Assembly: GCA_027486585.1 (NCBI GenBank)
Contig: JAIXOU010000119.1
Coordinates: 17,061 to 81,060 of the forward strand
DNA length: 64,000 nt
Source of the DNA: Verrucomicrobiaceae bacterium
GTDB taxonomy: Bacteria; Verrucomicrobiota; Verrucomicrobiia; Verrucomicrobiales; Verrucomicrobiaceae
Reading direction: 5' to 3'
Below the pieces are notes generated by a model that worked only from the letters and a program-made list of their open reading frames with translations, was not told where the DNA came from and made no database searches. This document shows, piece after piece, positions 14,380 through 38,135 of the stretch; the stretch's first letter is position 1; every line of letters begins with the position of its first letter. A program made the translations under genes and the position numbers.

Positions 14380-15078
14380 TCAATCAACTAAGCTGCCACT
14401 GCGGATTTGGGCGATCTCCTGAGCATCGAAACCGAGCTGTTGAAGTTGTGACTCGCTCACCTTATTTTGCCGAACTTGGTGTGCATAAAGAAGCATTACA
14501 GTGGCGCGGCGCGTGGCCTCATCTGGGATCGACTCCGCCCAGACGAGTGCCGTTTCTGCGTGGCCTGCTGAGGCAATATTTTCACTGATGGATCTGAGAC
14601 TATTACCGAGTTCATCAAAGCGTGCCGTTTGGTTGAGCCACTCCGTCGCTTGGTCTGGAGCTATGCTAAACCAGAGAACAATTTGTGCATTCAAGAGCGC
14701 GGCATTTTCTGGCGTAGAAGGCGTGCCTTCCAGCTCAGAGATGCGGCTAGCGACTTCGGCTGCGGTGATGCCTGCACCTGTGCTGACAGGGATGATGGCT
14801 GGTTTTGGCAGACGTGGACTTGCTGGCTCCGGCACGACGGCGCTGAGCCAGAAGGGCGGTTCATCTTTGGGTGCCCGTAGCAGGCGGTCGCGCAGAGCTA
14901 CACTCGCGGATGCTGGTACATGGTTGACTGCGGCAGCTGCGGAGTCGGTCGCCGCGTTAACATGAGCATGACTGATCTCAGGCGCACCGATGCGGTAGCC
15001 AATCCAGCTAGCGCAGAAGATCACGCCGATGAGTGCAGCCAACTTTGTCGGTTTGGATTGCAGCAGCGCAGCATTCAT
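14380..15078 (-). CDS. Hypothetical membrane-anchored protein, last gene of the SPFH-ATPase operon
   Basis: N-terminal TM helix, Ala/Pro-rich linker, helical C-terminus (APDQATEWLNQ, TALVWAESIPDE); ATGA overlap with the ATPase. Confidence 0.65.
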   Translation of the reverse strand: MNAALLQSKPTKLAALIGVIFCASWIGYRIGAPEISHAHVNAATDSAAAAVNHVPASASVALRDRLLRAPKDEPPFWLSAVVPEPASPRLPKPAIIPVSTGAGITAAEVASRISELEGTPSTPENAALLNAQIVLWFSIAPDQATEWLNQTARFDELGNSLRSISENIASAGHAETALVWAESIPDEATRRATVMLLYAHQVRQNKVSESQLQQLGFDAQEIAQIRSGSLVD

Positions 15079-17006: not shown

Positions 17007-18109
17007 CAGCGGGAAAATTGGGGTGCAGGCTCGACCAAGATGGAGGGCGCGGTAGTGGACATGGGCACCAGCGTGCGGGAGTAGATCTGACTCATGGCAG
17101 CATCCAGAGACTCGCGCAGGATGCGCTGCGCGACGAGTTCTGGCTGGAGCTGGTAGTTCGCCAAGAGGGAGGTGAAGGCGCTGGCTTCACCGCGTGCGAC
17201 GGCGATGAGATCGGCACTGTAACCCTGTGCCCGCTGCAGGATGGCGGCGGCGTCACCTTGATACTGGGTGACGGTCTCGCCCTGATATTGCAGAGAGTTT
17301 TCTGCCAAAGTTTTGGCAAACTGACGGGCATTGACCACGTCTTCAAAAGCCGCAAGCACTTGCTTCGGTGGAGATAGTTCCACGATGTCGATACTGCTGA
17401 TGCGGATGCCAAGGTGCAAGTGGGTGACAGATTCTTGCAGGCTGGTTGCAGCTGCCTTTGCCACATCGCTGCGGGCTTCTGTTAGGCTGGCGTCGATCTT
17501 CCGCGCTGCGAGCTGGACAGCGAGACTGCGGCGCGTGAGGCGTGTGAGGAGTGTGCGGATGTCTGCACCGCCAGAAGTATAGGCAAAAGGTTCGGCGATG
17601 CGGTAGCGCAGAGTAAAGCGGCCCTGAATGACGTTGTAGTCGGCTGTTAGCGTGTAGCCATGTCTCACGGGATCAAGTGTCATGTTTTCATACATTGGAA
17701 ACTCTGCGCCTTCAATTTCCCTGGTGGCGAGTTCAGCGCTGAGCTGCGCGTCTGTCTTTTCGATGGGTTTGTCGGGATCGCCGATCTTGGTGCCGATCAG
17801 CGCCCAATCATTGAGTGGCAGGCTGAGATCACGACCCGTATCGAATCGTAGCACTTCATCAAACGGTGCCGGTAATCCGATGAGTAGGCCTGGGCCATGC
17901 AACTGTGTTTGCAGCCGACCCAGCCTGCGCACCAGCGCACTTTCCTGCGGCTGGATGCTGTGGATTCCGGAGATGGCATAGAGCGCCAGTAAGACGGCAA
18001 AAACCCAGCGCGCATGAGCGGTGAGCTGCTTGAGAAAAAGCAGCAATGCCTCGACGAGGTGGCCGTCGTTGCGCAGGGGTGTTTGAGCTGGTTTCATTGC
18101 AGGCATCAC
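17006..18109 (-). CDS. SPFH/band-7 protein, HflK-like
   Basis: TM anchor, then LVRRLG..GPGLLIGLPAPFD, LTADYNVI, YRIAEP, IVELSPPKQVLAAFEDV and a coiled-coil tail. Confidence 0.85.
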   Translation of the reverse strand: MMPAMKPAQTPLRNDGHLVEALLLFLKQLTAHARWVFAVLLALYAISGIHSIQPQESALVRRLGRLQTQLHGPGLLIGLPAPFDEVLRFDTGRDLSLPLNDWALIGTKIGDPDKPIEKTDAQLSAELATREIEGAEFPMYENMTLDPVRHGYTLTADYNVIQGRFTLRYRIAEPFAYTSGGADIRTLLTRLTRRSLAVQLAARKIDASLTEARSDVAKAAATSLQESVTHLHLGIRISSIDIVELSPPKQVLAAFEDVVNARQFAKTLAENSLQYQGETVTQYQGDAAAILQRAQGYSADLIAVARGEASAFTSLLANYQLQPELVAQRILRESLDAAMSQIYSRTLVPMSTTAPSILVEPAPQFSR

Positions 18110-19092
18110 GGATTGCGGTCGATGATGATGGCAGTTGGCGCACTTGGCGCGGACATCTCGATTGGCTTTACGGGATTGCCGTCGCCTTCTTTGGCCTTCA
18201 GCCAGTGAAAGGGGGCTACGCTGGTATCGAGCACGACGGTGGTGTTTTTATCCACGACGGTACGCAGACTTTGAAGCTCACGCAGGAAGCGGTAAAAGGC
18301 GGGATCTTTGCCATGCGCCGTAGCATAGACTGCGGCGGCCTCAGCTTCGGCTTTGCCACGTAGTTCCTCGGCCTCACGTTTGGCGTCGGCGATGAGAAAG
18401 GTGGCTTGCTTATCGGTTTCTGCCTTCATCTCGGCAGCCTTGGCACGCCCTTCAGCGCGGTATTGTGTGGCCTCACGCTTGCGCTCGGATCTCATGCGGC
18501 GGAAGACGGATTCAGTATTGGCCTCGGGTAACTGGATTTGGGTGATGCCAGTGGTGATGAGCTCGATACCGAGCTGCTGGGCTGCATCTGCTGCGGCCAG
18601 AGTGAGTATTTCTTTTTCCAAAGCAGGGATGGAAGCTCCAATACGCTCATCACCGACCAGATCAGCGAAGTCATGGCGGCCAAGCATGGTATTGCGCGCG
18701 CTGGTGATGAGTGCATCAAGTTTTTGTCGAGCAGGTTCAAAGTCGCGCACGGAAGTGTGAAATATCAGCGCCTCCTGCACGCGCCAAGTGAAGAATACGG
18801 GAACGATGACATTGCGCTGATCACGTGTGAGCGTCTCACTGAGGCGGATCTCGGCGTGTTGCAGGCGCTTGTCGATACGCACGATGTGCTCCAGCGGCAC
18901 GGGCAGTCGGAAGTGTAGGCCGGGTTGCTCGATGGCGCGCATGGGTTTACCGAAACGCATCACCAAAACGTGCTCGGCTTCATTGACCAAAAAGCAGCAG
19001 GCGAAAGCGAGGACGAGCAGCGCAGCTGCGGCGATGGAGACGAGGCGTAGGGTGACGGTGCGACTAATGCTGACAGGGGAGATTTCACTCAT
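18106..19092 (-). CDS. SPFH/band-7 protein, HflC-like
   Basis: LVMRFGKP..PGLHFRLP, LTRDQRNVIV..FTWRV, VFRRMRSERKREA, DPAFYRFLRELQS: HflC hallmarks. Confidence 0.88.
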   Translation of the reverse strand: MSEISPVSISRTVTLRLVSIAAAALLVLAFACCFLVNEAEHVLVMRFGKPMRAIEQPGLHFRLPVPLEHIVRIDKRLQHAEIRLSETLTRDQRNVIVPVFFTWRVQEALIFHTSVRDFEPARQKLDALITSARNTMLGRHDFADLVGDERIGASIPALEKEILTLAAADAAQQLGIELITTGITQIQLPEANTESVFRRMRSERKREATQYRAEGRAKAAEMKAETDKQATFLIADAKREAEELRGKAEAEAAAVYATAHGKDPAFYRFLRELQSLRTVVDKNTTVVLDTSVAPFHWLKAKEGDGNPVKPIEMSAPSAPTAIIIDRNP

Positions 19093-20909
19093 GGCTTTGG
19101 CATCGGGCTGGGGTTTTGAAGGAGGTTGTCGGTGTCAGGAGGGGCCATGTTCGGTGCGGGGATTTCACCTTTGCCCATGCGCACATAGCCTTCGATTTCC
19201 TGGTCAAAGGCTTCGAGAGATTTACCTGGTTTTGGGATGAGTGACTGGAGTGCAGGCGCGGCGCTGCTGGTGAAGTCTGGGTTCAGCACTTTTCTCAGAT
19301 CAAGCTGCGCTGGTAGGCGTGTCTGGAGGCTGTCATCGACAATGGCTTTCTTCGTTCCTCCGAGTGCCTCATCCAGGACGCGAAAGCCTTCGCGCCATTG
19401 ATACAGTGTCGGCTGCAAGGCCCAGGCGGCGCGGCGGCTTTCGAAGCGCGCCACTTGACCATTGACTTGGGCTTGGCGGTTCTGTGCCACGGACTCCGCA
19501 CCTGTCAGTGCGGCACCGGCATAGGCTTTGGCATTGTAGAGACTGTCTGTGTTGTTTGATTCGGCTTCATAGATGGCAGCTTCTTTATCCTCCATGGCAG
19601 AAATCACTTCTTGGAAGGTCTGAGCGACACTGACAGGCGGGTGGATGTCACGCAACAGCACATCTGTGATAGTGATGCCTGAGTTCAGGGAATCGAGTGC
19701 TGTCTGCAAGCGCTGACGAAACAGCGCACGCATTTCTTCGCGTGCCTCAGTCATGATTTGCTCTGCCTTGAGCGGTAATGCTAGGGCAAGTAGAACGCGC
19801 TGGGCTTCCTGTGCTAGCAGTGCCTCAGGCTGTGCGAGGGTGCGCAGATAGCGCACAGGATCACTGATGCGAAAAAGAATGGGCACGCTGATGGAAAGGA
19901 AGTCATCGCCACCGCCGACGAGGGACTGCTGCTCGCCTTCATAATGCGCACGCTCCCAGAGGATGGGCTGGCCAGGATCGGTGCGGAAGCCGAGCACGAC
20001 CTCACGAACCAGACTGGTATTCACGACTTCCACAGTGCCCAGTGGCCATGGCAAAGAAAGGTGTAAACCCGGCGCGAGTGGCTGGGACTGCCAGATACCT
20101 AAATGCTGGCGCACTCCATGGCTGCTCGCTGGCACTTCATGCAGGCAGGAATTAGCCCAGACACAGAAAGAAATCGTCGCCAACAATGACGGTAAGCTGT
20201 CGCGCACGATGGGCCACATCCACATGTCAGCGAGTTTCAGTGAGATATGCTCTTCGATCTCAGCAGTATTCTTTTCAGGCACGCAGGCACGCCACTCGCC
20301 ACGGAGCCAGGGATAAAAGAAAAACACTCCTGGTTGCGGCATCTGTGACCAGTGTCGGCGAGGCGTGTAAAGCTGCGCCGTGAGTCGGAAGAAAGTGTCG
20401 GTAGTAAGTAGCAGACAGAGACCAGCTAGCGCTGTCGCTAACCAACCATGCAGAGGCAACTGCAAATATAGTGCGGCGAGTAGCACACCGGCGCTGATAA
20501 AATGAATCAACACGACTCCATGCAACAGACAACGGGAGATGGGCGGCCATGCTTTTTTCCCAGTTGCTGCTAGGATGCCTGCAAAGGACAGTGCGGCTCC
20601 GATAAGCAGTCCGCCGATGGGCCAAGCAGGAACGAGAAGATCAGCAGGCTGCCATCCGTTACCTGTGATGATCCATGCGGCCAAACTGATGGCGGCGAGT
20701 AAGACGCCCGTGGCAGGTCGGGCAATGAGCAGCCCTGCGCCGAGCATCACCAGAGCTACTAGCGGCAGTAACCAGAAAGTTTTCCAAACCAAGATCAAGA
20801 CCAGTAAACCCACGGCTTCAATGCCCAACAAAGCAGGCGGTAGGGAGGGAGAGTTTGCGGGTTTTGACATGAAAGCCAGAGAATGAAAGTCCCGGCCACG
20901 CGCTCGCAT
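19089..20909 (-). CDS. Polytopic membrane domain fused to an HflK-like SPFH domain
   Basis: About 6-7 N-terminal TM helices, then PGLHLSLPWPLG, FRISDP, LLRDIHPPVSVAQTFQEV and a coiled coil. True start may be MSKPANS at 20870. Confidence 0.8.
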   Translation of the reverse strand: MRARGRDFHSLAFMSKPANSPSLPPALLGIEAVGLLVLILVWKTFWLLPLVALVMLGAGLLIARPATGVLLAAISLAAWIITGNGWQPADLLVPAWPIGGLLIGAALSFAGILAATGKKAWPPISRCLLHGVVLIHFISAGVLLAALYLQLPLHGWLATALAGLCLLLTTDTFFRLTAQLYTPRRHWSQMPQPGVFFFYPWLRGEWRACVPEKNTAEIEEHISLKLADMWMWPIVRDSLPSLLATISFCVWANSCLHEVPASSHGVRQHLGIWQSQPLAPGLHLSLPWPLGTVEVVNTSLVREVVLGFRTDPGQPILWERAHYEGEQQSLVGGGDDFLSISVPILFRISDPVRYLRTLAQPEALLAQEAQRVLLALALPLKAEQIMTEAREEMRALFRQRLQTALDSLNSGITITDVLLRDIHPPVSVAQTFQEVISAMEDKEAAIYEAESNNTDSLYNAKAYAGAALTGAESVAQNRQAQVNGQVARFESRRAAWALQPTLYQWREGFRVLDEALGGTKKAIVDDSLQTRLPAQLDLRKVLNPDFTSSAAPALQSLIPKPGKSLEAFDQEIEGYVRMGKGEIPAPNMAPPDTDNLLQNPSPMPKP

Positions 20910-20949: not shown

Positions 20950-22620
20950 TTATGGTTTCGGACGAACGAGCAAGACCTGGCCGTCTTCGGCGAACTCCAG
21001 CAATGCCTGTGCTTTGGTCAGGAAGCCGCCAGATCCGTTGGGTGCATTGGAGCGGTGTGCTGCTGCACCGTATGGATGGGCCTGGATATTGATCAGGAAG
21101 GTACCAGCGCCAAAGATGGCGTCTGTGCTGATGACACCCGAGCTCTCCCAGAGACCTGCGGAATAGGCGCTGGTCAAGTTACCGTCGCGACCAGCCACAT
21201 AGCCGTAGTTGAAGGTGGATTGCAGCTTTGCTGCGTAGGCGTTGTTGCGATTGAGGGTCCACATACCGGCGTTGCGGGCCTTGGCTGTATAGACGGCATT
21301 GGCTGGGGAATTGGTGTCTTCACAAACCACGATGAAATCCTTCGTGACAGCGATGTTGTCGATGCTCACTGGATAGTCTGGGCCAGTAAGGTCACCCTGT
21401 GTGTAGGTGCCAATGGCACCCGTGACTGGAGCGGTTAGGCGACCTGTGCTCGCGCCAGAATAGCTGCCTGCTGGGTAAATAATGGTGTCTGCATTATAGA
21501 CGATGTTCAGCGTGCCATTGGCCAGTGGGTTCACTGGATTCATGGTCAATTCATAGAGACGACCAAGGCGGTTCGGGCCCGAACCACCTGTAGTGGCAAG
21601 GAAAACGCTGCGAGTAGGCTGCGTGGGGTCAAATTCTGCGTCCTCGACACGCACTAGGCCGAAACCACCAACGACGTCTGCCTGAATGGAAAGTTGGGTC
21701 CCAGTGAGATTGGCTGCATTTGGGATCTCGACCCACTTCGTGGCAAGGCTGCCAGAGGTGAAGGTGCCTTCATTGTGCTGGGCTGCGTTTCCGCAGAGGA
21801 CATAGAGCTTACCACCCGTGAGACCATTTTTATCGAGCACGCTATTGGAGCGACGGAGCTTGGTGCCCACATACATATAAGTGTAGGAGACAGGGCTGGC
21901 GCTAGGTGCAGGGCCGTCTTCGGTAAAGATGACGACTGTTTTGTCATCACGACGCGGCTGCACGATAGTGGTCTCGCGGGCTGCACGGCCCATGGCTGGA
22001 ATCGTGTACATTTTGCCATCAGCAACGACCACGACTTGGGAACCATTTGCATTGTAGTTGCCAGTGCCAGACTCCTCGTTGGTGAAGTAGAGCGGGCGAT
22101 CCATGCCGTGCTCACGTCCGGCAAAAGAACCGGAGCAGAAACGGGTGAAGCCAGCGGTATCACCTTCGAGTGGTGGGCGCGTTCCCAGTGTGCCAGCGGC
22201 CTGGGTGTTTTCCAGGAACAGTTCTTTGTGAGCGACCGTACCATTAAGGATAGCGCCAGTGGTGCTATTCATGGAAAAGCGTGAAACGAAGGCACCCTTG
22301 TAGCGTGTCGAACCCGCGAATGGGCGGCTATTGCTAGTGCTATTGATTTCGTGGGCTACGAAAAGAATATTCTCATTCGTCACGCTATCTTTGTAGATGC
22401 CCATGGCATCAGGAATGCCACAGAAGGTGTAGTCAGTGGCTCCCACTGGGCCAGTGCCGGACGTCAGAGGAACACGATCACCCACAGTCACGATCGGGGT
22501 GAACGTGAAGTCTGAGGTCGGGGTGGCGCTGAGGTAGGAAGACTCGGAAGTCAGCACGCCCTGAGCGAAGGCGGATGTCGAGGCGAGCGCAAGGCCGGCC
22601 AGAAGTTTGGAGAAGTGCAT
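20950..22620 (-). CDS. phoX: PhoX-family (DUF839) alkaline phosphatase
   Basis: Ligand-pattern motifs in order: GIPDAMG, VAHE, RFCSG, TNEE, ARE, TED, RVED, IDNI, VCED, WESSG, NIQAH. Sec-type signal, no twin-Arg. Confidence 0.78.
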   Translation of the reverse strand: MHFSKLLAGLALASTSAFAQGVLTSESSYLSATPTSDFTFTPIVTVGDRVPLTSGTGPVGATDYTFCGIPDAMGIYKDSVTNENILFVAHEINSTSNSRPFAGSTRYKGAFVSRFSMNSTTGAILNGTVAHKELFLENTQAAGTLGTRPPLEGDTAGFTRFCSGSFAGREHGMDRPLYFTNEESGTGNYNANGSQVVVVADGKMYTIPAMGRAARETTIVQPRRDDKTVVIFTEDGPAPSASPVSYTYMYVGTKLRRSNSVLDKNGLTGGKLYVLCGNAAQHNEGTFTSGSLATKWVEIPNAANLTGTQLSIQADVVGGFGLVRVEDAEFDPTQPTRSVFLATTGGSGPNRLGRLYELTMNPVNPLANGTLNIVYNADTIIYPAGSYSGASTGRLTAPVTGAIGTYTQGDLTGPDYPVSIDNIAVTKDFIVVCEDTNSPANAVYTAKARNAGMWTLNRNNAYAAKLQSTFNYGYVAGRDGNLTSAYSAGLWESSGVISTDAIFGAGTFLINIQAHPYGAAAHRSNAPNGSGGFLTKAQALLEFAEDGQVLLVRPKP

Positions 22621-27363: not shown

Positions 27364-28344
27364 TTACTTTGGCTTTGCCCATTGCGGGCGTTCTTCGATC
27401 ACATAATCGGTAACCAAGTATTCCGTACCATTCCGCAGGATCATGAGTTTCACGGGATGGCCGACGCCATACATGTAGAGCCACTTTTGGAAGTCGCCGA
27501 CGCTGAGGATGCGGTTGTAGGAGAACTGTACCAGGATGTCACCAGCTTGGATGCCGAGTTTCTCTGCTGGGCTGTTTTCCCAAACATCTTCAATGGCCAC
27601 GCCGCCGTGGTGTTTTTTTGCTGTTGGGAAAAGTTGCTGCTCTTGTTCATTCAGAGGTCGAACGGAGAAGCCTGTCCACGGTGATTTAAGGCTGCGCTTG
27701 GTTTTGAGGCTCTCATAAATGTTAAAGCACAGATTGATCGGCAGGAGATGCGTCTCGCTTGTGTCCTCGGCATGGCCTTGTTCCACTTCAGGCTTGTAGC
27801 CTGTAAATAGCGCTGCCACCTCGCCAGTGTCAGCATAAAAGACGGGTCCGCCGAGTGATGCAGCAGGGATCGTGATCTTCGCCCGAAACATGGTGGAGCC
27901 GAGGCTATGCTGATAACAGAGCTTCGTATTAAATGCAGTCACCTGACCGTCGATTGATTTTAAAGAACTACCTTCAAACAAAACAGCCTGCAATAACATG
28001 CCTGGAGCGATGTCACGCTTCACGGCACAAGTGACCGGTGTGAAGGTTTCCTCGGTTTCGAGTTTTAGGATGCCCATGTTGATCGTCGGTTCGACGCCGA
28101 TGATTTCTGCGTCATAACTCTTCATTCCAGACGTGACCTCAAATTTTTCTAAAAGCAGCCCATCTGGCTGCGAAATGAGATTGTCATAGTGCGTAAGCAC
28201 AAAGCCTTCCTTCTCGACGATAAACCCAAGGCAGCGATTGACCACCTGACCATTCTTTAAACCTGCGATGCTGACGACTCCGCGATTAGGCGTTTGAGCG
28301 ATCAACGATGCGGTCGTGAGCAATAAACAGATAACAAATTTCAT
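27364..28344 (-). CDS. HtrA/DegP-like trypsin-fold + PDZ protein lacking the catalytic triad
   Basis: Ungapped match to HtrA motifs, but His->Asp (VLTHYDNL), Asp->Asn (PTINMGILKL), Ser->Leu (PAASLGGPVF); PDZ (NSPAEKLGIQAGDIL). ATG 28344 gives a signal peptide and an ATGA overlap. Confidence 0.82.
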   Translation of the reverse strand: MKFVICLLLTTASLIAQTPNRGVVSIAGLKNGQVVNRCLGFIVEKEGFVLTHYDNLISQPDGLLLEKFEVTSGMKSYDAEIIGVEPTINMGILKLETEETFTPVTCAVKRDIAPGMLLQAVLFEGSSLKSIDGQVTAFNTKLCYQHSLGSTMFRAKITIPAASLGGPVFYADTGEVAALFTGYKPEVEQGHAEDTSETHLLPINLCFNIYESLKTKRSLKSPWTGFSVRPLNEQEQQLFPTAKKHHGGVAIEDVWENSPAEKLGIQAGDILVQFSYNRILSVGDFQKWLYMYGVGHPVKLMILRNGTEYLVTDYVIEERPQWAKPK

Positions 28345-28832
28345 GGTTGGAATGATTGGTTGAAGGGGTTCACCTCGGTGCCGCGCGTGATGCGGATGAA
28401 TGGATGTAGCGTGGCTGCATGGCAGGCATTGCAACTCTGGATGACTGTATCCAGTGCCGTGAGCATCTGTTGTTTGTCTTTGGTATTCACGGCCTCTTGC
28501 ATCGTCGCATACGTAGGTAGTCCCATGCGATCCATCAGCAGCGCCACGGGCTGGCCTTCATATTCAGGCACCTCGGTTTGGATCTTCTTCATCTGCTCCA
28601 GAGACTCATGCATGTAAAAGTTTGCCAGCTCTGCATTCCCCGCGTCTGCGGATAGGGCCATCTTATGCGTCAGTCTTTGTAGCTCTCCCATGAGTAAGGC
28701 TAACTCGGGCGGAGAGCTTTCTAGGCTTAAGGGCTCTAACTTCGCAGCCTCACCGCTGGAAGTTTTCAGGACGATAACCGCGAAGAGAGCCACACTGAGA
28801 AGTGCTAATGAAGTGGATGTGTGTGCTCGCAT
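28341..28832 (-). CDS. Exported mono-haem c-type cytochrome, cytochrome c'-like helical bundle
   Basis: Signal or TM segment, all-helical body, single C-terminal CNACH motif; ATG 28832 preferred over 28883. Confidence 0.7.
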   Translation of the reverse strand: MRAHTSTSLALLSVALFAVIVLKTSSGEAAKLEPLSLESSPPELALLMGELQRLTHKMALSADAGNAELANFYMHESLEQMKKIQTEVPEYEGQPVALLMDRMGLPTYATMQEAVNTKDKQQMLTALDTVIQSCNACHAATLHPFIRITRGTEVNPFNQSFQP

Positions 28833-29075: not shown

Positions 29076-32000
29076 ATGAAATTAAGATCCTTGCTCCTCA
29101 AATCCTTGGCGGTCTCAGCCGGTTGCTTGCTCAGCCAAGCATTGAATGTGCAAGCTGCGCCGTTCACTTCTGGTAATCTGGTTGTGCTGCGCGTGGGCGA
29201 CGGCGGCACAACGCTCGGCACCGCTGCATCTGCGGTAAGTCTGGCGGAATACACGACAGCCACCAGTCAAGGTTCACCCGTGCAGACAATTAGCGTGGAT
29301 TCCACTGCTGCGGGTCTTACCTTGACTGGGAACTCAGCCACTCAAGGGACTCTCAATCGCTCTACTGATGGCACTCTTCTAACCTTCGGTGGGTATCGCA
29401 AAGCTGCGGGTGGTACCAACCCACAAAGCGATACGACAGCGACCACCAACCGTGTCGTCGGTTACATCGGAGTTAGCGGAAGCACTCCAAACGTGGCCAC
29501 CGCCGTCACCGATGGCTTTAGCGCGGACTCCTTTCGTAGCGTGATTACGGTGAATGGCAGCTCCTTCTACCTTTCCGGCGCAGGAGCTAGCGCCTCGGGT
29601 GGCGTGCGCTATTTGGGGACCGTAGGGTCGGCTACGACCTCTGTGCCGATCAATAATGGTAACACAGGCAATCCAAACACCCGACAGATCCTCATCCTCG
29701 GAGGTAACATCTACCTTTCATCTGGTGCTGGGAATCCAGGGATTGGAGTTCACAAAGTCGGCGCTGGATTGCCCACATCGGGTCCCCAGACATACACTGG
29801 GAGCATCACGACTACAGCGCAGATCCAATCATTTTATTTCACCAATCTTGGCAGCGGTAATAACTGGGCTTCCAGTGGCTTCGACACGGTTTACACGGCA
29901 GATGGTGCGAACCTTTCTAAGTTCTCGTTTAATGGCACGTCCTGGGCACTGAACAACGCAGTGGCAGTCACAGGCATCGGTAACATCATCGGCACGACGA
30001 GTGGTAGCACAGTCACCTTGTATGGCACAGACACGACGGCATCCACTGGCAGGATTATTTCCCTGACTGATACTGCTGGGTTCAATGTCAATAATAACGG
30101 CTCTGCCACCACACTCGCTACGGCTGGCACCAACTACGCATTCCGTGGCATCTCCTTTGCTCCTGTCGCAGTCGTCACTCCGGTCATCACTGGTACCGCG
30201 ACAGCAGCGGCTTTCACCACGACCTATGGCACTGTATCTGAGGTGCAGACTTTCCCTGTCACGGGCAGCAATCTCAGCGCTAACATCACCGCTACGGCGC
30301 CTGCGGGTTTTGAGGTCTCCAGTGACGGCACGGCCTTCGCAAGTACTGCCAGTTTCGTTCCATCTAGCGGCAGCGTGACCGGCTCACTCTCAGTTCGCTT
30401 GAGTGCCAACGCCGCTGTGCTTGGCAACTTGAATTCACAGATCATCGCGCTCACAAGCGCAGGTGCCACAACGGTAAACGTCACCACAGCAGCCACTGGT
30501 AACATCGTCTCAGCGAAAGCACTGACCGTCACGGCAAACGATGTCAGCAAGAATCTTAACGTCACGCTCACCGGCGGCGCTGGTTCCACAGCTTTCACCA
30601 GCAGCGGGCTGGCAAACAGCGAAACGATTGGCACTGTGACGATCACTTATGGCGCTGGCGCAGCGGCGGCTGATCCAGCGGGCACTTACGCGACTTCGGT
30701 CGTCGCATCGCTAGCTACAGGTGGCAGCTTCACGTCCTCCAATTACGCCATTACTTACATGGCTGGAACGATCACCGTGAATCCAGCGGCCTCACTGACG
30801 ATCAGTGGTTTAACTGCAGACAACAAACCATATGACCGAACCATCAGCGCAACGTTGAGTGGCACGCCAACTTTAGTGGGAGTGCTTCCAGCTGATGTCG
30901 GTAATGTCACGCTGAGCGGTACGCCGGTCGCCACTTTTGCATCGGCTGGTTTCGGCAATGGCATCGCAGTTACCGTTACGGGCTACACACTGTCCGGTTC
31001 TGCAGCAGGAAGCTACGTGCTGTCTCAGCCCACGGGTCTGAGTGCAAACATCACGCAGCTTGCGCTCACAGTCTCAGGCGCAGCTGTGACGCCAAAGCCC
31101 TTTGATGGCAACACGAACGCCATCATCACTGGCACGCTAACAGGTGTCATCGCCCCCGATGTCGTGACCTTTAATGGCAGCGGTAACTTTGTATCATCCG
31201 CCATCGGAACCGGCATTGCGGTGACTTCAACGAGCACCATCGGAGGTGCTAATGCAGGTAACTATGTTCTCACTCAACTTACTGGTCTCACTGGCGATAT
31301 CACCGCGCCCACATTAACCTCAGTGGACCTTTCTAACTATGTCCGTGTGGGTCGCCATAACTTGCCGGAGTATCGGCGCACGGCGCTGCCGGCAGGCACG
31401 CCAGTGAGCAATCTGCTATGTGATGAAGCTTCTGGGGTGGCCTACAATTGGGATACCGACACGCTCTTCATCTGCGGTGACGGTGGCCGTGCCATCACGC
31501 AAGTGACCAAGTCAGGCCAATTGGTGGACACGATGACACTGGAACTCAACGCAGCTAAACCACAGGGCACCGAGTTTTACGATCCAGAGGGCATCACCTA
31601 CATAGGCGGTGGTCAGTTTGTTTTCAGTGAGGAGCGTGAACGTCAGTTGGTGAAGTTCACCTATATGGGCGGCACTACACTGACTCGTGCAGCAGCACAG
31701 ACCGTGGATCTCGGCACCTTTGATGACAACACTGGGACTGAAGGCATGTCTTGGGACCCGCAAACTAATGGATTCATCGTGTTGAAGGAAAAGACACCGA
31801 TTGGTGTTTTCCAGACGAGCATTGATTGGAATGCAGGAACAGCGACCAATGGCTCGCCTACGACGGTGAACTCGACCAACCTCTTTGATACCACGCTGCT
31901 CGGCATGACGGATGTAGCGGATGTCTTTGCGCTCTCCAATTTGCCTTCCATGACGGGCCAAGCACAGGCTGGAAACCTGCTCATCCTGGGCCAAGAGAAT

Positions 32001-35000
32001 GCGCGTGTCGTGAATGTTGACCGTGCAGGAAACATCGTCAGCACACTCAACATCACTTCGGACGTGGGGAATCCTTTGAGTGCCGCTGACCAGCAGCCTG
32101 AAGGCATCACGATGGACCGCGCGGGCAACATCTATGTCGTCAATGAAAACGGCGGCGGCAGTATCGAGTTCCCACAACTTTGGGTCTATGCGCCTTCCAC
32201 AGTGCCGAATGCAGCTCCGACAGCCGTGGTGCTGAACAACGCAGTCAATTCTCTCCAGGAAAACACCAGTACGGCCTCACCGATCAAGGTGGGCGACATC
32301 GTCGTGACCGATGACGGACTTGGCACCAACGCGCTGAGCCTCACTGGAGCCGATGCGGCCTCCTTCCAGATCACTGGTAGTGCCCTGTATCTCAAATCGG
32401 GTGCCGTGCTCGATTTCGAGACGAAGACCAGCTACGCCGTCACCATCAATGCGGACGATACAACCGTTGGCTCTACGCCAGACGTCACGGTCAACTATAC
32501 GCTAAGCGTGACAGATCAGGTCGTCGAAACACCTGCGCCTCCTGCCCTCATCGTTACCGAAGTGGCTCCCTGGGCCAGCAGTAACGGCATAGTCGGCGGT
32601 GATTGGTTTGAAGTCACCAACGTCAGTGCCAACGCCGTGGACATCACCGGTTGGAAGATTGACGACAGTTCGAACGCTTTCGCAACCTCGCTCGCACTCA
32701 CTGGCATCACCAGCATCGCTGCGGGTGAGTCTGTGATCTTCCTCGAAAGCACCGTGGCCAATCAAGCCACCATCGTGGACACTTTCAAAACGGTGTGGTT
32801 CGGCGGCAGTCCTCCTGTGGGTCTGCAAGTCGGCACTTATCAAGGCTCCGGAGCCGGCCTCAGCACCGGTGGTGATGCGGTAAACCTCTTCACCGCTGGT
32901 GGCACACGTCACTCTGGCGTCAGCTTCGGTGCAGCCGATGTCGCGACGCCTTTCCAGACCTTCGACAACACCGCTGCGGCAAACGACACGGCCATCGCCT
33001 TGTTAAGCACAGTGGGAGTGAACGGAGCCTTCGCCGCTGCCACCAGCTCGGTTGAAATCGGCTCACCCGGCATCTCAAATCCTGGCGTGCTCCGCGTCAC
33101 GGAAGTCGCTCCCTGGAGCAGCGGCAACAGCCCTGTGGTCGCCGATTGGTTTGAAGTCACCAACACAGGCGCACGTGCCGTGGACATCACGGGTTGGAAA
33201 GTGGACGATAGCTCGGAGTCTCCTGCTGCTGCGCTCGCACTCGTTGGTATCACCAGCATCGCTCCGGGTGAATCCGTGATCTTCCTCGAGTCCGCCACAC
33301 CTGTGACCACCAAGGCCGCGTTCCTCTCGAACTGGTTCGGCGCAAGTCCTCCAGCCTCTCTGCAAGTCGGCAGCTACACTGGCGGCGGCATCGGCCTCAG
33401 CACGGGTGGTGACGCGGTTAATCTCTACGACACCAACAACGTGCGCCAAGCAAACGTGTCTTTCGGACTTTCACCTTCCACAGCTCCCTTCACGACCTTT
33501 GATAACGCGGCGGCAGCCAACGTCGCCGCTCTCACCCAGTTCAGCGTCGTCGGAGTCAATGGAGCCTTTGTTGCCGTCAATAGTGCGACTGAAGTCGGTT
33601 CACCTGGTGGACTCGCGTCGGCACCGATTGGAGCCTCGGTTGTGAGTATTGCCGCTGCCTCAGTCAATGAGGGTAATAGCGGCACGATTATCCTGAATCT
33701 ACCAGTGACGAGGACGAACACCTCCTCTGTTTTTACCGTGAACTATGCGGTCACTGGTGGCACCGCTACGGCTGGCACGGACTATACGCTGGCTGCTGGC
33801 ACGCTCAGCTTCACCTTCAATGGTGCTGCCACACAAGATATCGCCGTCACGGTGAATGGTGATACCACTATCGAGAGCAATGAAGTCGTCACCGTCACGC
33901 TGTCTGGAATCGTTAATGCCAATGGCACGACCACCCTCGGCACCGCTGCGGCGAATGGCACTGTCACCAATGACGACACCGTGCCGAACTCATTCCCGAG
34001 CAACGGCAGGATCACTTCTACGGTGAAAGGCTCCATCGATCTGGATGCCGCTCCTCTCGCTAGCACCAATGGTGCGGAAATCCCAGCCTTTGACCCGCTT
34101 TCTAAACGCGCTTTCACTTCATCCAACTCCGGCATCCAGGTGATCAATCTCACCAATCCAGCCGCCCCAGCTTTCATCAATACCATCGCTCCTGCCTCGC
34201 TCGGAGTCGCGGGGCTCACCAGCAATGATGTTTCCTCCGTGACGGTCAGAAAAGGCACCGGCGGAAATCCAAGCGTTCTCGCCGCTGCGATCATTTCCTC
34301 GCCTAAGTCCGCGCTTGGTTTTGTGATCTTTATCAATCCTGCCACTGGTGCCTTGATCGGTTCCAGTCAGGTCGGCGCGAATCCAGACCATATCGCTTTC
34401 AGCCCAGATGGCACGAAACTGCTCGTCGCTAATGAAGGTGAGCTGGATGCCGTAAACGCTGCACCCACCGTGATCGCAAGCGATACAACGATCGGCTCTG
34501 TGAGCATCATCAGTGTGCCGGTCGTCATCACCGGTGTGCCGACTTCGCTGCCTACCGCCACTGCAGATTTCACCGGCTATGATAGCCAATCAGCAGCCCT
34601 CAGCGCAGTAGGTGTCCGCATTTTCCAAGGCGGCAAGCCCTCCACTGATTTCGAGCCTGAATACTTTGCCATCAGCGCAGATAGCACCAAGGCGCTCGTT
34701 ACCCTTCAGGAGGCAAACGCTGTCGCCACTCTTGATCTCGCCACTGCCACTTTCACTTCCGTGGTGCCGCTTGGAAAAAAGAACTTCGCCACTGGCCGCC
34801 ACGATTTTAGCGATCGCGATGGTCTTACTGCCGCAGGCGCTGCTACCACGCTGGTGAATCCAACCACTGGCAGTCCTGTCTTTGGCCTCTATATGCCAGA
34901 TGCTGTAGCCTCCTACTCCGCCGCTGGACAGACCTACTACATCACCGCCAATGAGGGTGATGATCGCAACGATTTCTTTAATCCCGATGAAACCACCACT

Positions 35001-38000
35001 GTGGGTGCCGCTACTGGTTATACTCTCGATCCCACCGTATTTCCAAATGCCGCCGCGCTGAAAAACCAAGCCAGCCTTGGCCGCCTTACCGTTTGTAATT
35101 CCCCCGGCCTGCGCGGCGATACCGATGGTGATGGCGACATCGACGAGATCCTCAGCTACGGCGGTCGTTCCTTCTCCATCCTTGACTCCACTGGAGCCAT
35201 CATCTGGGATAGCGGTGACATGATCGAAAACATCATCGCTTCGCAGTTCCCAGCGAATTTTGATGACGGCCGCAGCGACAATAAAGGCCCCGAACCAGAA
35301 GGTGTCACCGTCGCCACCCTCGGCAGCCGCACCTACGCCTTCATCGGCCTGGAGCGCTCGCACATGACTCTCATGTTCGACGTCACCAATCCCGCCGCCG
35401 TCACCTTTGCCGGTGGACTGGTCCGCAGCGGCGATCTCAACCCCGAAGGCCTCGTGGTGGTTTCCGCCGCCGATAGTCCGACTGGCAAACCGCTCGTTCT
35501 CCAAGCCAGCGAAGTTTCCCAAACTCTCACCGTTTTTGAACTGAATCAAACCACCGACTACACCCTCCAAGTCCTCCACTACTACGGTGAGAGCGGCCTG
35601 CTCGGTATCCAGACCGCGCCGATCATGGGCGCGATGATCGACAGGTTCGATGACCAGTATGCGAACACGGTCGTCATCGGTGAGGGCGATAGCTTCATCC
35701 CTGGCCCTTGGCTGGTTGCTGGCGCTGATCCGGCCTTCAATGCGCTGCTCCACACCACAGCTCAAGTCTATTCCGGCAACAACGGTGCACTCGGCGTGGC
35801 AGGCACTTTCAATGCCACCGCGACAGCGACGACCGCTGTGCCCTTTGCCCGCGCTGACATCGCAATCATGAATGCCTTTGGCACTACTGTCTCGGCTCTC
35901 GGTAACCATGAGTTTGACCTTGGTTCACCCGTGCTAGCCAGTGCCATTTATCCTGCAACAACAACAGGCAGTAGCGCTGTGGGCAACTGGGTCGGTGCCA
36001 AGTTCCCGCACATCACAGCTAACCTCGACTTCTCCGCAGATAGCAGCCTGCGTGGTCGGGCTGACCTCAGTCTTGGCGGCGTAGCTGGCACGGCAAACAA
36101 TGCACCCAATGTGAATGCCATCACGGCAGGCACCATCGCCAATCTTGAGGTCACTAGTGTGAACATGCAGGCCAAGATCGCCCCCTATGCCATCAAGACG
36201 ATCAATGGCCAGCGCATCGGTTTTGTTGGAGCCACGACCTTTGACCTACTCTCGAAGTCTTCACCTAATGGCACGGTGCCAAAGGATGATGCCAATGCTT
36301 CCACCAGCGATCTTCAAGAAGTCGCCGCTTATCTGCAAGCTGCCGTCAATTCCCTGCAAGCACTCGGTGTGACCAAGATCATCCAAGTTGATCAGCTAGA
36401 TACCCTGCAACGCAACAAGGACCTCGCACCGCTCGTCTCCGGTATCGACATCGTCGTTGCTGGTGGTGGTCATGAACGCATGGGAGATGCCACGGATGTA
36501 CCTGTCGGATTCAATGGACACGATGCCGACTTCGTTGCTGATGCCTATCCAATCGTCACAGCTGGTGCCGATGGCCGCCCAGTGCTCATCGTCACCACCG
36601 ACACCGAGTACACATACCTCGGTCGCCTCGTCGCCGACTTTGATGCCGACGGCACCTTGATTGTGCCCAATCTGAATCCTGTGGTAAATGGAGCTTATGC
36701 TTCCACCGAAGCCAATCTTCAGGTTGCCTATGCTACCGCAAACAGCGCCGCTTCCATTATCGCCAGCAGCACTATTGGCAGTCAGGTCAAGACTATCATC
36801 GATGCGATCAACACAGTCGTCGTCACAAAAGACAGCAACGTCTATGGATATACCAACGTGTATCTTGAAGGTGATCGTGTTTTTGGTCGCACACAGGAAG
36901 TGAATCTCGGCAACATCACCGCTGATGCCAACGCCTGGAAGGGACGTAACGCGCTCGGCCTTGGCCTTGGGGATGCGGTATTCTCGCTGAAGAACGGCGG
37001 TGGCATCCGCGCCTCACTTGGCTCGGTGCTGGCGAATGGCACCAAGGTTGCACCGATCGCCAACCCGCTCACCGGCAAACTTGCAGGCGGCATTTCTCAG
37101 CTCGATGTCGAAAACGCGCTCCGTTTCGATAACAAGCTGATGGTCTTCGATGCTACCCCGCTCGGCCTCAAGAACATCCTCGAATTCGCTTCTGGCCTCA
37201 GTAGCGGGCCGACTGTCCAGAGTGGAGGTTACGCCCAAGTGGGTAACATCCGTTTCTCCTACAATTCTGCGCTGACTTCCGGCTCCAGACTGCGCTCCGC
37301 CGCCCTCGTCAATGAAGCCGGACAGATCGTCGCAAAAATCGTCGAGAATGGCGTAGTGCTTCCCACCGCTCCGGCCACTATCAAGTGCGTCGCACTCAGC
37401 TTCACTGCCAATGGCGGCGACAATTACCCGATCAAGTATCTCAACCCGCCGACCAATACGACTGTGAACAGCGAGACTTCGAACTTCCGCTTGTTGCTCA
37501 CCAATGGCGGTCTATCCGATCCGGTCGCTAGAAACTTAGACTTCACTGCCGCCAGTACCTACACCAGTCTTGGCATCACGGCGGCAGATGTGCTCGGTGA
37601 ACAAAAAGCCTTCCAGGACTTCCTCGCCGCACGTCATCCGAACCTTGCGACTGCTTACAATATCGTTGACACAACAGTGGCCCAGGACACGCGCATCCAG
37701 CAACTCGCCTTCCGCAGTGACACAGTCCTCAGCGGCCCGGCTACCTTTGCCTCATGGCTTGCGGCCAATGGTTTCTCTGGAAATGCTAGTGGTGACAGCG
37801 ACAATGATGGGGTGCCAGACTCACTGGAATACTTCTTCAATGCCAATCCAAACAGTAGTGCAGACCGTGACAACCTGCCTGCGCTCGTGACGAACGGCAG
37901 TGATTTGGAGTTCCGTTTTACTTACCTAAATACGACCACCTTGACCGGATTCCTCCAGTGCTCAGCCGATCTCACCAATTGGGTGAACGCGACACCTGGG

Positions 38001-38135
38001 GTGGATTATGAAGTCATCAGTGAAACCGTAAACGGTGTCGAGACAACGGTGCGTTATCGAGTCTTTAGTGATCCTGCTCCTGTTGGTTCAAACCCAGCCA
38101 AGTTCTTCAAGATTGCCGTTCCTGGCGCACCCTAA
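29076..38135 (+). CDS. Giant (3019 aa) secreted multi-domain phosphatase/5'-nucleotidase
   Basis: Signal peptide; N-terminal propeller-like region; MBG/YDG-like stalk repeats; SdiA-regulated-like propeller (EASGVAYN, DPEGIT); cadherin-like; two lamin-tail-like domains; Calx-beta-like; choice-of-anchor-I-like (GAEIPAFDP, VANEGE, DDGRSDNKGPEPEG); 5'-nucleotidase N and C (GNHEFDLG, GGGHE, EVNLGNITAD, KNGGGIRAS); DSDNDG C-terminal domain. Confidence 0.88.
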   Translation: MKLRSLLLKSLAVSAGCLLSQALNVQAAPFTSGNLVVLRVGDGGTTLGTAASAVSLAEYTTATSQGSPVQTISVDSTAAGLTLTGNSATQGTLNRSTDGTLLTFGGYRKAAGGTNPQSDTTATTNRVVGYIGVSGSTPNVATAVTDGFSADSFRSVITVNGSSFYLSGAGASASGGVRYLGTVGSATTSVPINNGNTGNPNTRQILILGGNIYLSSGAGNPGIGVHKVGAGLPTSGPQTYTGSITTTAQIQSFYFTNLGSGNNWASSGFDTVYTADGANLSKFSFNGTSWALNNAVAVTGIGNIIGTTSGSTVTLYGTDTTASTGRIISLTDTAGFNVNNNGSATTLATAGTNYAFRGISFAPVAVVTPVITGTATAAAFTTTYGTVSEVQTFPVTGSNLSANITATAPAGFEVSSDGTAFASTASFVPSSGSVTGSLSVRLSANAAVLGNLNSQIIALTSAGATTVNVTTAATGNIVSAKALTVTANDVSKNLNVTLTGGAGSTAFTSSGLANSETIGTVTITYGAGAAAADPAGTYATSVVASLATGGSFTSSNYAITYMAGTITVNPAASLTISGLTADNKPYDRTISATLSGTPTLVGVLPADVGNVTLSGTPVATFASAGFGNGIAVTVTGYTLSGSAAGSYVLSQPTGLSANITQLALTVSGAAVTPKPFDGNTNAIITGTLTGVIAPDVVTFNGSGNFVSSAIGTGIAVTSTSTIGGANAGNYVLTQLTGLTGDITAPTLTSVDLSNYVRVGRHNLPEYRRTALPAGTPVSNLLCDEASGVAYNWDTDTLFICGDGGRAITQVTKSGQLVDTMTLELNAAKPQGTEFYDPEGITYIGGGQFVFSEERERQLVKFTYMGGTTLTRAAAQTVDLGTFDDNTGTEGMSWDPQTNGFIVLKEKTPIGVFQTSIDWNAGTATNGSPTTVNSTNLFDTTLLGMTDVADVFALSNLPSMTGQAQAGNLLILGQENARVVNVDRAGNIVSTLNITSDVGNPLSAADQQPEGITMDRAGNIYVVNENGGGSIEFPQLWVYAPSTVPNAAPTAVVLNNAVNSLQENTSTASPIKVGDIVVTDDGLGTNALSLTGADAASFQITGSALYLKSGAVLDFETKTSYAVTINADDTTVGSTPDVTVNYTLSVTDQVVETPAPPALIVTEVAPWASSNGIVGGDWFEVTNVSANAVDITGWKIDDSSNAFATSLALTGITSIAAGESVIFLESTVANQATIVDTFKTVWFGGSPPVGLQVGTYQGSGAGLSTGGDAVNLFTAGGTRHSGVSFGAADVATPFQTFDNTAAANDTAIALLSTVGVNGAFAAATSSVEIGSPGISNPGVLRVTEVAPWSSGNSPVVADWFEVTNTGARAVDITGWKVDDSSESPAAALALVGITSIAPGESVIFLESATPVTTKAAFLSNWFGASPPASLQVGSYTGGGIGLSTGGDAVNLYDTNNVRQANVSFGLSPSTAPFTTFDNAAAANVAALTQFSVVGVNGAFVAVNSATEVGSPGGLASAPIGASVVSIAAASVNEGNSGTIILNLPVTRTNTSSVFTVNYAVTGGTATAGTDYTLAAGTLSFTFNGAATQDIAVTVNGDTTIESNEVVTVTLSGIVNANGTTTLGTAAANGTVTNDDTVPNSFPSNGRITSTVKGSIDLDAAPLASTNGAEIPAFDPLSKRAFTSSNSGIQVINLTNPAAPAFINTIAPASLGVAGLTSNDVSSVTVRKGTGGNPSVLAAAIISSPKSALGFVIFINPATGALIGSSQVGANPDHIAFSPDGTKLLVANEGELDAVNAAPTVIASDTTIGSVSIISVPVVITGVPTSLPTATADFTGYDSQSAALSAVGVRIFQGGKPSTDFEPEYFAISADSTKALVTLQEANAVATLDLATATFTSVVPLGKKNFATGRHDFSDRDGLTAAGAATTLVNPTTGSPVFGLYMPDAVASYSAAGQTYYITANEGDDRNDFFNPDETTTVGAATGYTLDPTVFPNAAALKNQASLGRLTVCNSPGLRGDTDGDGDIDEILSYGGRSFSILDSTGAIIWDSGDMIENIIASQFPANFDDGRSDNKGPEPEGVTVATLGSRTYAFIGLERSHMTLMFDVTNPAAVTFAGGLVRSGDLNPEGLVVVSAADSPTGKPLVLQASEVSQTLTVFELNQTTDYTLQVLHYYGESGLLGIQTAPIMGAMIDRFDDQYANTVVIGEGDSFIPGPWLVAGADPAFNALLHTTAQVYSGNNGALGVAGTFNATATATTAVPFARADIAIMNAFGTTVSALGNHEFDLGSPVLASAIYPATTTGSSAVGNWVGAKFPHITANLDFSADSSLRGRADLSLGGVAGTANNAPNVNAITAGTIANLEVTSVNMQAKIAPYAIKTINGQRIGFVGATTFDLLSKSSPNGTVPKDDANASTSDLQEVAAYLQAAVNSLQALGVTKIIQVDQLDTLQRNKDLAPLVSGIDIVVAGGGHERMGDATDVPVGFNGHDADFVADAYPIVTAGADGRPVLIVTTDTEYTYLGRLVADFDADGTLIVPNLNPVVNGAYASTEANLQVAYATANSAASIIASSTIGSQVKTIIDAINTVVVTKDSNVYGYTNVYLEGDRVFGRTQEVNLGNITADANAWKGRNALGLGLGDAVFSLKNGGGIRASLGSVLANGTKVAPIANPLTGKLAGGISQLDVENALRFDNKLMVFDATPLGLKNILEFASGLSSGPTVQSGGYAQVGNIRFSYNSALTSGSRLRSAALVNEAGQIVAKIVENGVVLPTAPATIKCVALSFTANGGDNYPIKYLNPPTNTTVNSETSNFRLLLTNGGLSDPVARNLDFTAASTYTSLGITAADVLGEQKAFQDFLAARHPNLATAYNIVDTTVAQDTRIQQLAFRSDTVLSGPATFASWLAANGFSGNASGDSDNDGVPDSLEYFFNANPNSSADRDNLPALVTNGSDLEFRFTYLNTTTLTGFLQCSADLTNWVNATPGVDYEVISETVNGVETTVRYRVFSDPAPVGSNPAKFFKIAVPGAP
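32559..33640 (+). repeat. Tandem duplication of a lamin-tail-like domain (543-bp period) inside the giant gene
   Basis: EVAPW...DWFEVTN...VDITGWK.DDS...GLSTGGDAVNL occurs twice, starting at 32559 and 33102, with obvious DNA-level similarity. Confidence 0.85.

Follow-up and report, generated by a model that had tools for sequence, protein, structure and literature searches.

An HtrA-type pseudoprotease and its small haem-motif partner in phosphate-starvation islands of Verrucomicrobiota

The closest known case to the protein described here is MamO, the magnetosome pseudoprotease of Magnetospirillum, which has an HtrA/trypsin-fold domain with a degenerate active site and a non-proteolytic, iron-linked job; HtrA stock has given rise to pseudoproteases on several occasions (Hershey et al. 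2016, PMC4794232). DegS, DegP and DegQ, members of the S1C HtrA group, carry the complete His-Asp-Ser triad and are proteolytic. Here we describe a gene from a 64,000-nucleotide stretch of DNA (the window; contig JAIXOU010000119.1, positions 17,061 to 81,060) of Verrucomicrobiaceae bacterium (assembly GCA_027486585.1). It encodes a secreted HtrA homologue, which we term pseudo-HtrA, in which all three residues of the triad have been replaced, and it directly follows the gene for a small protein with a haem c attachment motif, referred to below as the small cytochrome. The two genes (the pair) recur in other Verrucomicrobiota, where they lie among genes for phosphate scavenging, and we tentatively connect them with the handling of iron.

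Loss of the catalytic triad in a conserved HtrA homologue

The positions of the triad were set by HMMER alignment to DegP-like PDB chains and by MAFFT alignment with canonical HtrAs. The GNSGGP of the latter lies opposite A162-S163-L164-G165-G166-P167, which places Leu164 in the position of the nucleophilic Ser (the position is residue 164, not 163). The D..D.A motif is opposite E85..N89.G (EPTINMG), with Asn89 for the triad Asp, and TN.HV is opposite T51-H52-Y53-D54-N55. In this last case the His is replaced by Asp54 in the ungapped register, or by Asn55 if the one-residue gap introduced by HMMER is accepted; neither register places a His in the catalytic position. In terms of HtrA proteins as defined in MEROPS S1C, pseudo-HtrA has the trypsin-like two-barrel fold followed by at least one PDZ domain, and has D54, N89 and L164 in place of the triad of TNxHV ... 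D ... GNSGGP. Because His, Asp and Ser are all replaced serine-protease action is impossible, and the protein is a pseudoprotease. The source databases label proteins of this kind "serine protease Do" or "S1C family serine protease"; since the catalytic residues are gone this label is wrong for the whole clade.

Homologues with 54-93% identity to pseudo-HtrA fall into more than 120 clusters, and those which carry the name of an organism are all from Verrucomicrobiota (Prosthecobacter, Akkermansiaceae, "Verrucomicrobiae bacterium"). Across 119 aligned homologues from this range (the close family) there is no case of His at position 54 or of Ser at position 164, where the residue is L in 40, I in 39, V in 22, K in 7, T in 5 and another one in the few that are left. 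H52, two residues upstream of the His position, is found in just two of the 119, and the same alignment contains no conserved His near the active site. S163 is kept in 108 of the close homologues, and is A, G or T in most of the distant members of the clade described below. Judged by sequence conservation, a shifted but complete triad would be ruled out.

The N-terminus of pseudo-HtrA is a Sec-type signal (MKFVICLLLTTASLIAQ) and the reading frame is free of stops and frameshifts. An alternative reading initiated at TTG would give 356 amino acids; the 326-amino acid product with the MK start is preferred because the homologues start there and because of the ATGA overlap with the upstream stop. 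Pfam recognizes Trypsin_2 (residues 39-179, E 1.3e-8) and PDZ_2 (243-308, E 7e-9), both above their gathering scores. The NCBIfam models for HtrA, DegP and DegS score weakly (20-66 bits against cut-offs of 400-750). An AlphaFold2 model built with the 119 homologues as input has a mean predicted local distance difference test (pLDDT) score of 89.4, and its top Foldseek matches in the PDB are DegS, MucD, DegQ and DegP, each with a probability of 1.0. The Pfam domains and the model matches identify pseudo-HtrA as a true homologue of HtrA, with a single protease domain and a single PDZ domain. The protein contains five cysteines, C6 (in the signal peptide), C38, C106, C143 and C206, of which only C143 and C206 are invariant in the close family. 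The initial annotation of the window, made from its letters and reading frames, had called this gene an HtrA/PDZ pseudo-protease with each of the three substitutions listed above, an intact signal peptide, fold and PDZ domain, no stops or frameshifts, and several Cys residues; the alignments, the reading frame, the Pfam domains and the model agree with it on every count.

The gene is not decaying. When the window copy was compared codon by codon with 14 orthologues, the ratios of nonsynonymous to synonymous substitution rates (dN/dS) were 0.08-0.14, including a value of 0.105 for the nearest orthologue at an unsaturated dS of 0.375, and approximately 64 columns are invariant across the 119 aligned homologues. 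Pseudo-HtrA is thus under purifying selection. At least five intact HtrA paralogues (TNxHV plus GNSGGP) are present in the source genome; therefore pseudo-HtrA is a specialised paralogue rather than the housekeeping HtrA.

An exhaustive HMMER search of 1.8 billion representatives returned 38 clusters at E ≤ 1e-30 and 741 at E ≤ 1e-10. An invariant Cys-Tyr-Gln (CYQ) at the position of C143-Q145 is common to 70 of the best 150 clusters, and this CYQ clade extends over Verrucomicrobiota, Planctomycetota, Acidobacteriota, Myxococcota and several candidate phyla. One of its 70 representatives retains H-D-S; the nucleophile position in the clade is mostly Y, F, L, I, V or W. In a FastTree phylogeny of 116 sequences a single branch, with Shimodaira-Hasegawa-like support of 100, parts the canonical GNSGG HtrAs from all of the CYQ proteins, including the family found in the window, a topology consistent with a single origin of the clade. 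Across 67 diverse members P86, C143, Y144, Q145, S221, P222, G225, G248 and R319 are invariant, and E85, W223, F285, Q286, L289, Y290, R304 and P320 nearly so. From the usual layout of HtrA PDZ domains and the secondary structure of the model we take SPWxG to be the carboxylate-binding-loop region and DFQKWLY to be the peptide-groove helix. Since these two motifs and CYQ are conserved, the L3 loop and the PDZ groove are the parts which the clade keeps. A conserved disulfide was rejected as a feature of the clade: the invariance of C206 does not extend beyond the close family, and most of the distant members have Ala in its place. The His/Glu-rich stretch from H191 to H199 is a candidate metal site.

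Compared with DegS, DegP and DegQ, which are also its best structural matches, pseudo-HtrA has the same fold and order of domains and shares the carboxylate-binding-loop region of the PDZ domain; the surface through which L3 and PDZ communicate is the part that is conserved in pseudo-HtrA. It differs from them in having lost all three residues on which proteolysis depends. With MamO it shares a degenerate triad in an HtrA-derived domain, and MamO, too, acts alongside haem (magnetochrome) and PDZ proteins, namely MamE and MamP. The differences are considerable. MamO retains the His and the Asp, with Thr in the position of the nucleophile; its metal ligands are H148, beside the triad Asp, and H263, whereas the residue before N89 in pseudo-HtrA is Ile or Leu; and MamO is fused to a TauE transporter domain, is without a PDZ domain and is encoded in the magnetosome island, whereas pseudo-HtrA has no TauE domain and has phosphate-scavenging neighbours. 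Membership of pseudo-HtrA in the MamO family was rejected on a score of 32 bits with the NCBIfam MamO model (cut-off 800), the lack of a conserved counterpart of H148, and the absence of TauE. The CYQ clade, with a signature of its own, has an origin separate from that of MamO.

Haem proteins as partners

The AlphaFold2 model of the small cytochrome (pLDDT 85.6) contains helices at residues 44-63, 67-87, 96-117 and 120-140, with the CNACH motif at 134-138 and a poorly ordered tail (residues 141-163) after helix 4. Its 118 homologues, all unnamed in the source databases, are at least 95% conserved in CNxCH, in Met48 (PELALLM), in His56 (LQRLTHK) and in the tail sequence GTEVNPFNQSFxP. As in the class II c-type cytochromes (c', c556) there is a four-helix bundle with CXXCH at the C-terminal end of helix 4, together with a conserved Met near the start of helix 1; the extra, conserved C-terminal tail of 23 residues sets the protein apart from them. 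It scores 18.9 bits with Pfam Cytochrom_C_2 (PF01322), below the cut-off of 26.5, and no sequence relatives were found in the PDB. Foldseek returned weak, generic four-helix-bundle matches (E 0.06 or weaker), several cytochromes c' among them. The motif suggests that haem would be attached at CNACH, and CcsA-type cytochrome c assembly genes are encoded in the source genome. The tail is a candidate for a peptide that docks in the PDZ groove or in the dead cleft of pseudo-HtrA.

In a sample of 120 genomes of the family, pseudo-HtrA was present in 15, and in all 15 the small cytochrome is encoded directly upstream; in a 16th genome the cytochrome gene is situated at the edge of a contig. The same order was observed in every metagenomic locus examined and in distant Verrucomicrobiota (49% identity). 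This small CXXCH partner is obligate. The pair as a whole is an accessory unit: sampling across the phylum showed it in two of 301 genomes, and sampling of its own genus in 13.

As checks on its reading of the gene the initial annotation had named the conservation of the triad loss and of the linkage to the cytochrome, and it had singled out relaxed selection on this copy as a result that would speak against it. The triad loss holds in all 119 close homologues and in 69 of the 70 representatives of the wider clade, the linkage is without exception in the positive genomes, and the dN/dS values give no sign of relaxation, all of which supports the view that the protein has been selected for a non-proteolytic job. 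The jobs that were listed (chaperone, sensor or scaffold) are generic, and the evidence would narrow them to a haem-partnered, probably iron-related function. The indications of iron come mainly from distant relatives.

Twenty of the 70 CYQ representatives are larger proteins (550-680 amino acids) in which a helical domain and a mono-haem class I cytochrome c (PF13442 / PF00034) stand N-terminal to pseudo-HtrA. A scan of one genome per species revealed such fusions in Acidobacteriota, Myxococcota, Binatia, Krumholzibacteriia and others, and the N-terminal module by itself proved to be the N-terminus of the cytochrome c-FTR1 (cFTR1) iron permeases. A fused protein (P0148) and a cFTR1 permease are 38% identical over 266 amino acids (E 5e-52), and at one locus (L096) the cFTR1-type module and pseudo-HtrA are encoded by separate, adjoining genes. 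cFTR1 has been described as an Fe(III)-preferring permease, which possibly acts after re-oxidation of Fe(II) (bioRxiv 10.1101/2021.11.08.467730). The second kind of partner came to light in non-fused loci of Planctomycetota, Phycisphaerae, Eisenbacteria, Gemmatimonadota and one metagenome-assembled genome of Verrucomicrobiia: in 19-20 out of 27 such loci pseudo-HtrA directly adjoins a di-haem oxidoreductase (DHOR, PF06537) and an imelysin (PF09375). Operons of imelysin and di-haem peroxidase are Fur-regulated and have been implicated in iron uptake (PMC3143127). The third kind is the small CN[AE]CH cytochrome of Verrucomicrobiota. Homology between it and the cytochrome module of the fusions was considered and rejected, the profile-profile match being confined to CXXCH with a probability of 6%.

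The three kinds of haem partner are mutually unrelated. What is constant across the clade is the presence of a c-type haem protein, and two of the three kinds come from recognised iron-handling systems; the recruitment of three unrelated haem partners is a strong pointer to a shared redox-linked job. The likeness to the cFTR1 and the EfeUOB/imelysin-di-haem peroxidase systems is that distant CYQ members carry or adjoin their parts, and that in each a periplasmic haem protein is coupled to iron handling. The gene in the window differs in that its haem partner is an unrelated four-helix protein and in that its genome is without FTR1.

Two observations on these systems may be added. The cFTR1 permeases (L111, 7923-9857; L130, 7968-9896) contain, before the cytochrome c, a helical domain of approximately 100 amino acids (LVFLLxYIGxDYxxAV...EYxEM) which has no match in Pfam; helical domain and cytochrome c together form a two-part module that is reused in the pseudo-HtrA fusions. 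Imelysin, DHOR and the dead CYQ HtrA-PDZ protein form a three-gene cluster that is conserved in Planctomycetota, Eisenbacteria and others, at L076 (7905-11643) and also at L080, L083, L085, L092, L097, L100, L101 and L104; the descriptions of imelysin operons in PMC3143127 do not include an HtrA-like member.

Phosphate scavenging and a possible role in iron supply

Neighbourhoods of the pair were compared in the 19 Verrucomicrobiota loci first examined and in six more from a scan of genome contigs. In the 19 loci the neighbours are overwhelmingly phosphate-scavenging genes. A gene of the PhoX family, specifying either a giant protein or an enzyme of 556-616 amino acids, occurs within approximately 7 kb, and often adjacent, in 10 of them. 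The giant neighbour is a secreted protein of some 2000 amino acids with Big_5, PhoX, Exo_endo_phos and Endonuclease_1 domains; it is also adjacent to the pair in two of the six further loci (L132, L140). The remaining neighbours include genes for phosphonate catabolism, a nucleoside transporter, and DUF4394 and PATR surface proteins. The giant PhoX-bearing protein was detected in 11 of 16 pair-positive genomes of the family sample versus 2 of 104 pair-negative ones (Fisher p 3e-10), counts which are approximate because the Pfam PhoX scan misses some of the PhoX-like genes found by locus clustering (G387, G410). In Verrucomicrobiota the pair lies in phosphate-starvation islands.

PhoX contains two Fe3+ and three Ca2+ with an oxo bridge. 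Both PhoX and PhoD are normally substrates of the twin-arginine translocation (Tat) pathway, for the argued reason that the iron must be inserted in the cytoplasm (PMC4223295). The PhoX-like proteins beside the pair (in the window and at L053, L054, L057 and L060) are divergent and have plain Sec signals with no twin arginine. Six full-length canonical PhoX genes from pair-negative genomes of the same family (L142-L147) all specify S/T-R-R-x-F twin-arginine motifs. A PhoX-like enzyme that is exported unfolded via Sec would need its iron to be supplied, and oxidised, outside the cytoplasm.

Our preferred proposal, tentative and in our estimation falling a little short of even, is that the secreted non-proteolytic HtrA homologue and its small cytochrome handle iron in the periplasm and possibly supply Fe(III) to PhoX-like enzymes. 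The translationally coupled two-gene unit would make both proteins together, and these probably form a complex in the periplasm, in which the handle is likely to be the conserved, floppy cytochrome tail and the socket is likely to be the PDZ groove, itself strongly conserved, together with the Cys-Tyr-Gln loop beside it. Because of the fusions to the cFTR1 cytochrome module and the adjacency to imelysin and DHOR, we infer that the module handles iron at the haem, where it would oxidise Fe(II) and hold or pass on Fe(III). Supply of Fe(III) to the PhoX-like enzymes after their export, the most specific and a doubtful part of the proposal, is suggested because the pair is found beside Sec-exported enzymes of this type in phosphate-starvation islands. 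What points to the iron role is, throughout, gene association. A more ambitious version, which we consider doubtful, is that of a dedicated periplasmic metallation machine: a P-type ATPase scaffolded by SPFH proteins would export Fe(II), the haem would oxidise it, the pseudoprotease would hold it (on the CYQ/PDZ surface or in the His/Glu-rich L2 loop), and the Fe(III) would be inserted into Sec-exported PhoX-type phosphatases. The CYQ clade would in that event be a new, protease-derived class of periplasmic iron chaperone, distributed over several phyla and with interchangeable haem partners. A metal-exporting ATPase, a cytochrome and a protein scaffold would be the parts expected for metallation of PhoX outside the cytoplasm.

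Following MamO, this would be a second, independent and far more widespread instance of an HtrA protein turned non-catalytic and probably metal-handling. If the link to PhoX is true it would answer how iron-calcium phosphatases can mature outside the cytoplasm, a question that is relevant to the way in which iron limitation and phosphorus limitation are coupled in natural waters and soils.

Several observations weigh against the proposal. The iron link derives from relatives at only 27-35% identity, over which the function may have shifted. None of the 19 Verrucomicrobiota loci first examined contains imelysin (PF09375), DHOR (PF06537) or FTR1 (PF03239), and FTR1 was not found in the source genome. 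The common factor of the unrelated haem partners could be electron transfer to something other than iron, and metal binding, haem attachment and complex formation are all predicted properties. Three of the 16 pair-positive genomes are without a detectable PhoX-type gene, and in one genome the giant PhoX protein is present but the pair is not. There is also a third PhoX-like family, of approximately 520 amino acids and with the Pfam PhoX match confined to the C-terminal half, which has Sec signals and occurs in genomes of the same genus that do not have the pair (L148-L153); a general rule that every Sec-type PhoX-like enzyme needs the pair was rejected on this account. The pattern of Pho-box-like sites may be read either way: GTCA[CT]-type hexamers are present upstream of the cytochrome gene in several loci, with a classic repeat at 11-bp spacing in one of them (L060), and such sites are not enriched in the intergenic regions of the window.

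Other explanations of the pair begin from the same features. That fold, GGP loop and PDZ groove are all retained would suit a non-catalytic chaperone or holdase. Like protease-dead DegP, it would use its cleft and PDZ domain to bind secreted clients in the unfolded state, and would assist the giant neighbouring phosphate-scavenging proteins (2000-6000 amino acids) in folding or export, the cytochrome merely tuning this activity by its redox state. Giant secreted proteins (the PhoX/EEP/Endonuclease_1 protein, the 3019-amino acid protein, PATR) are indeed found beside the pair in most loci. We nevertheless think this unlikely, as it does not account for the invariant Cys-Tyr-Gln, nor for the cFTR1-type cytochrome fusions and the imelysin and DHOR neighbours seen across phyla at loci that encode no giant secreted proteins. 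The Cys-Tyr-Gln motif lies in the L3 sensor-loop region beside the PDZ domain, which would suit a regulatory pseudoenzyme that senses a peptide or redox signal through PDZ and cytochrome and switches an active HtrA paralogue or some other partner. There is a precedent in the activation of MamE by MamO (PMC4794232), and the active-looking paralogues of the source genome would provide possible targets. In none of the 19 loci first examined is an active HtrA gene linked to the pair, and the conserved partners are haem proteins, not proteases; we rate regulation of this type as distinctly unlikely.

Residual catalysis appears very improbable. In such a hydrolase non-canonical residues would take over, for example C143 or S163 with one of the invariant histidines (H191, H199 or H245). 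Trypsin-fold cysteine proteases exist, the viral 3C proteases being examples, C143 is invariant throughout the clade, and S163 is frequent in the close family. C143 is situated off the nucleophile position, however, and the clade as a whole has no invariant His; moreover, neither S163, replaced in most of the distant members, nor the rare H52 is a clade-wide feature. As for a decaying pseudogene copy of an HtrA gene, for which the replacement of the entire triad might be taken as a sign, it is refuted by the intact frame, the dN/dS of about 0.1, the number of invariant columns and the pLDDT of 89, and we give it next to no credence.

Organization of the locus

The features of the pair and of its surroundings are collected in Table 1. 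In the window the cytochrome and pseudo-HtrA genes head an array of nine genes on one strand, followed by those for the DUF4394 protein, the PhoX-like enzyme, three SPFH proteins and the P-type ATPase. L057 has the same array with eight genes; the gene for a PATR protein between those for pseudo-HtrA and DUF4394 is found in the window array and not in L057.

Table 1. Positions in the window of the pseudo-HtrA gene, its partner and neighbouring genes
Feature	Position	Strand	Remarks
Pseudo-HtrA gene	27364..28344	-	326 amino acids: Sec signal, trypsin-fold domain, one PDZ, conserved C-terminal IEERPxWAKPK
D54 codon, catalytic-His position (TNxH to THYD)	28183..28185	-	His in 0 of 119 homologues
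N89 codon, catalytic-Asp position	28078..28080	-	N 90, D 23, G 5, S 1 (n = 119)
L164 codon, nucleophilic-Ser position (GNSGGP to ASLGGP)	27853..27855	-	Oxyanion-hole GGP retained; Ser in 0 of 119
C143-Y144-Q145 clade motif, region equivalent to HtrA sensor loop L3	27910..27918	-	Invariant in 119 close and 66 distant members
H191-x-E193-x3-E197-x-H199, His/Glu-rich, L2-loop region	27748..27774	-	Invariant or nearly so, in the close family only
PDZ domain	27400..27684	-	SPWTGF (carboxylate-binding-loop region) and DFQKWLY (groove helix) kept clade-wide
Small secreted or anchored four-helix protein (163 amino acids), hydrophobic N-terminus, C-terminal CNACH	28341..28832	-	Stop and pseudo-HtrA start overlap in ATGA
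CNACH haem c attachment motif, end of helix 4	28419..28433	-	CNxCH in at least 95% of 118 homologues
Flexible, strongly conserved C-terminal tail IRITxGTEVNPFNQSFxP	28344..28412	-	From conservation and model
DUF4394 protein, PEP-CTERM-like end	22669-23517	-	Three loci (window; L057 8529-9446; L059 10992-11840) have it between pair and PhoX-like gene
Sec-signal PhoX-like enzyme (556 amino acids)	20950..22620	-	Same strand as the pair
P-type ATPase and three SPFH proteins	15075..20909	-	Same array after the pair in locus L057
Secreted multi-domain protein (3019 amino acids), divergently transcribed	29076..38135	+	Family recurs beside the pair in 6 loci

Near the pair in other loci are genes for a DUF3419 protein and an S-adenosylmethionine (SAM) methyltransferase, and for a GT4 glycosyltransferase and a metallophosphoesterase (L054 13387-17290; L059 3035-7512; L060 1660-3692). 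The former two are probably BtaA/BtaB-like betaine-lipid genes and the latter two Agt/PlcP-like lipid-remodelling genes, which suggests that genes for phosphorus-sparing remodelling of lipids belong to the same island as the pair.

One genome contains, at a different place, a further copy of the small cytochrome gene (L046, G416:C46:13713-13904); it is incomplete, is interrupted by two in-frame stops and is likely to be the remnant of a lost or moved cassette. Nine loci (L049-L052, L055, L057, L058, L060 and L001) share a conserved block, TCGTCGAAAnnGTTGCA, approximately 60-75 nucleotides upstream of the start of the cytochrome gene. The subgroup to which the window belongs is without this block and has another one, TGTGACCTTTTTGTTGAAC ... 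CGTCACACAAAGCCTATCG; both may be sites for regulators.

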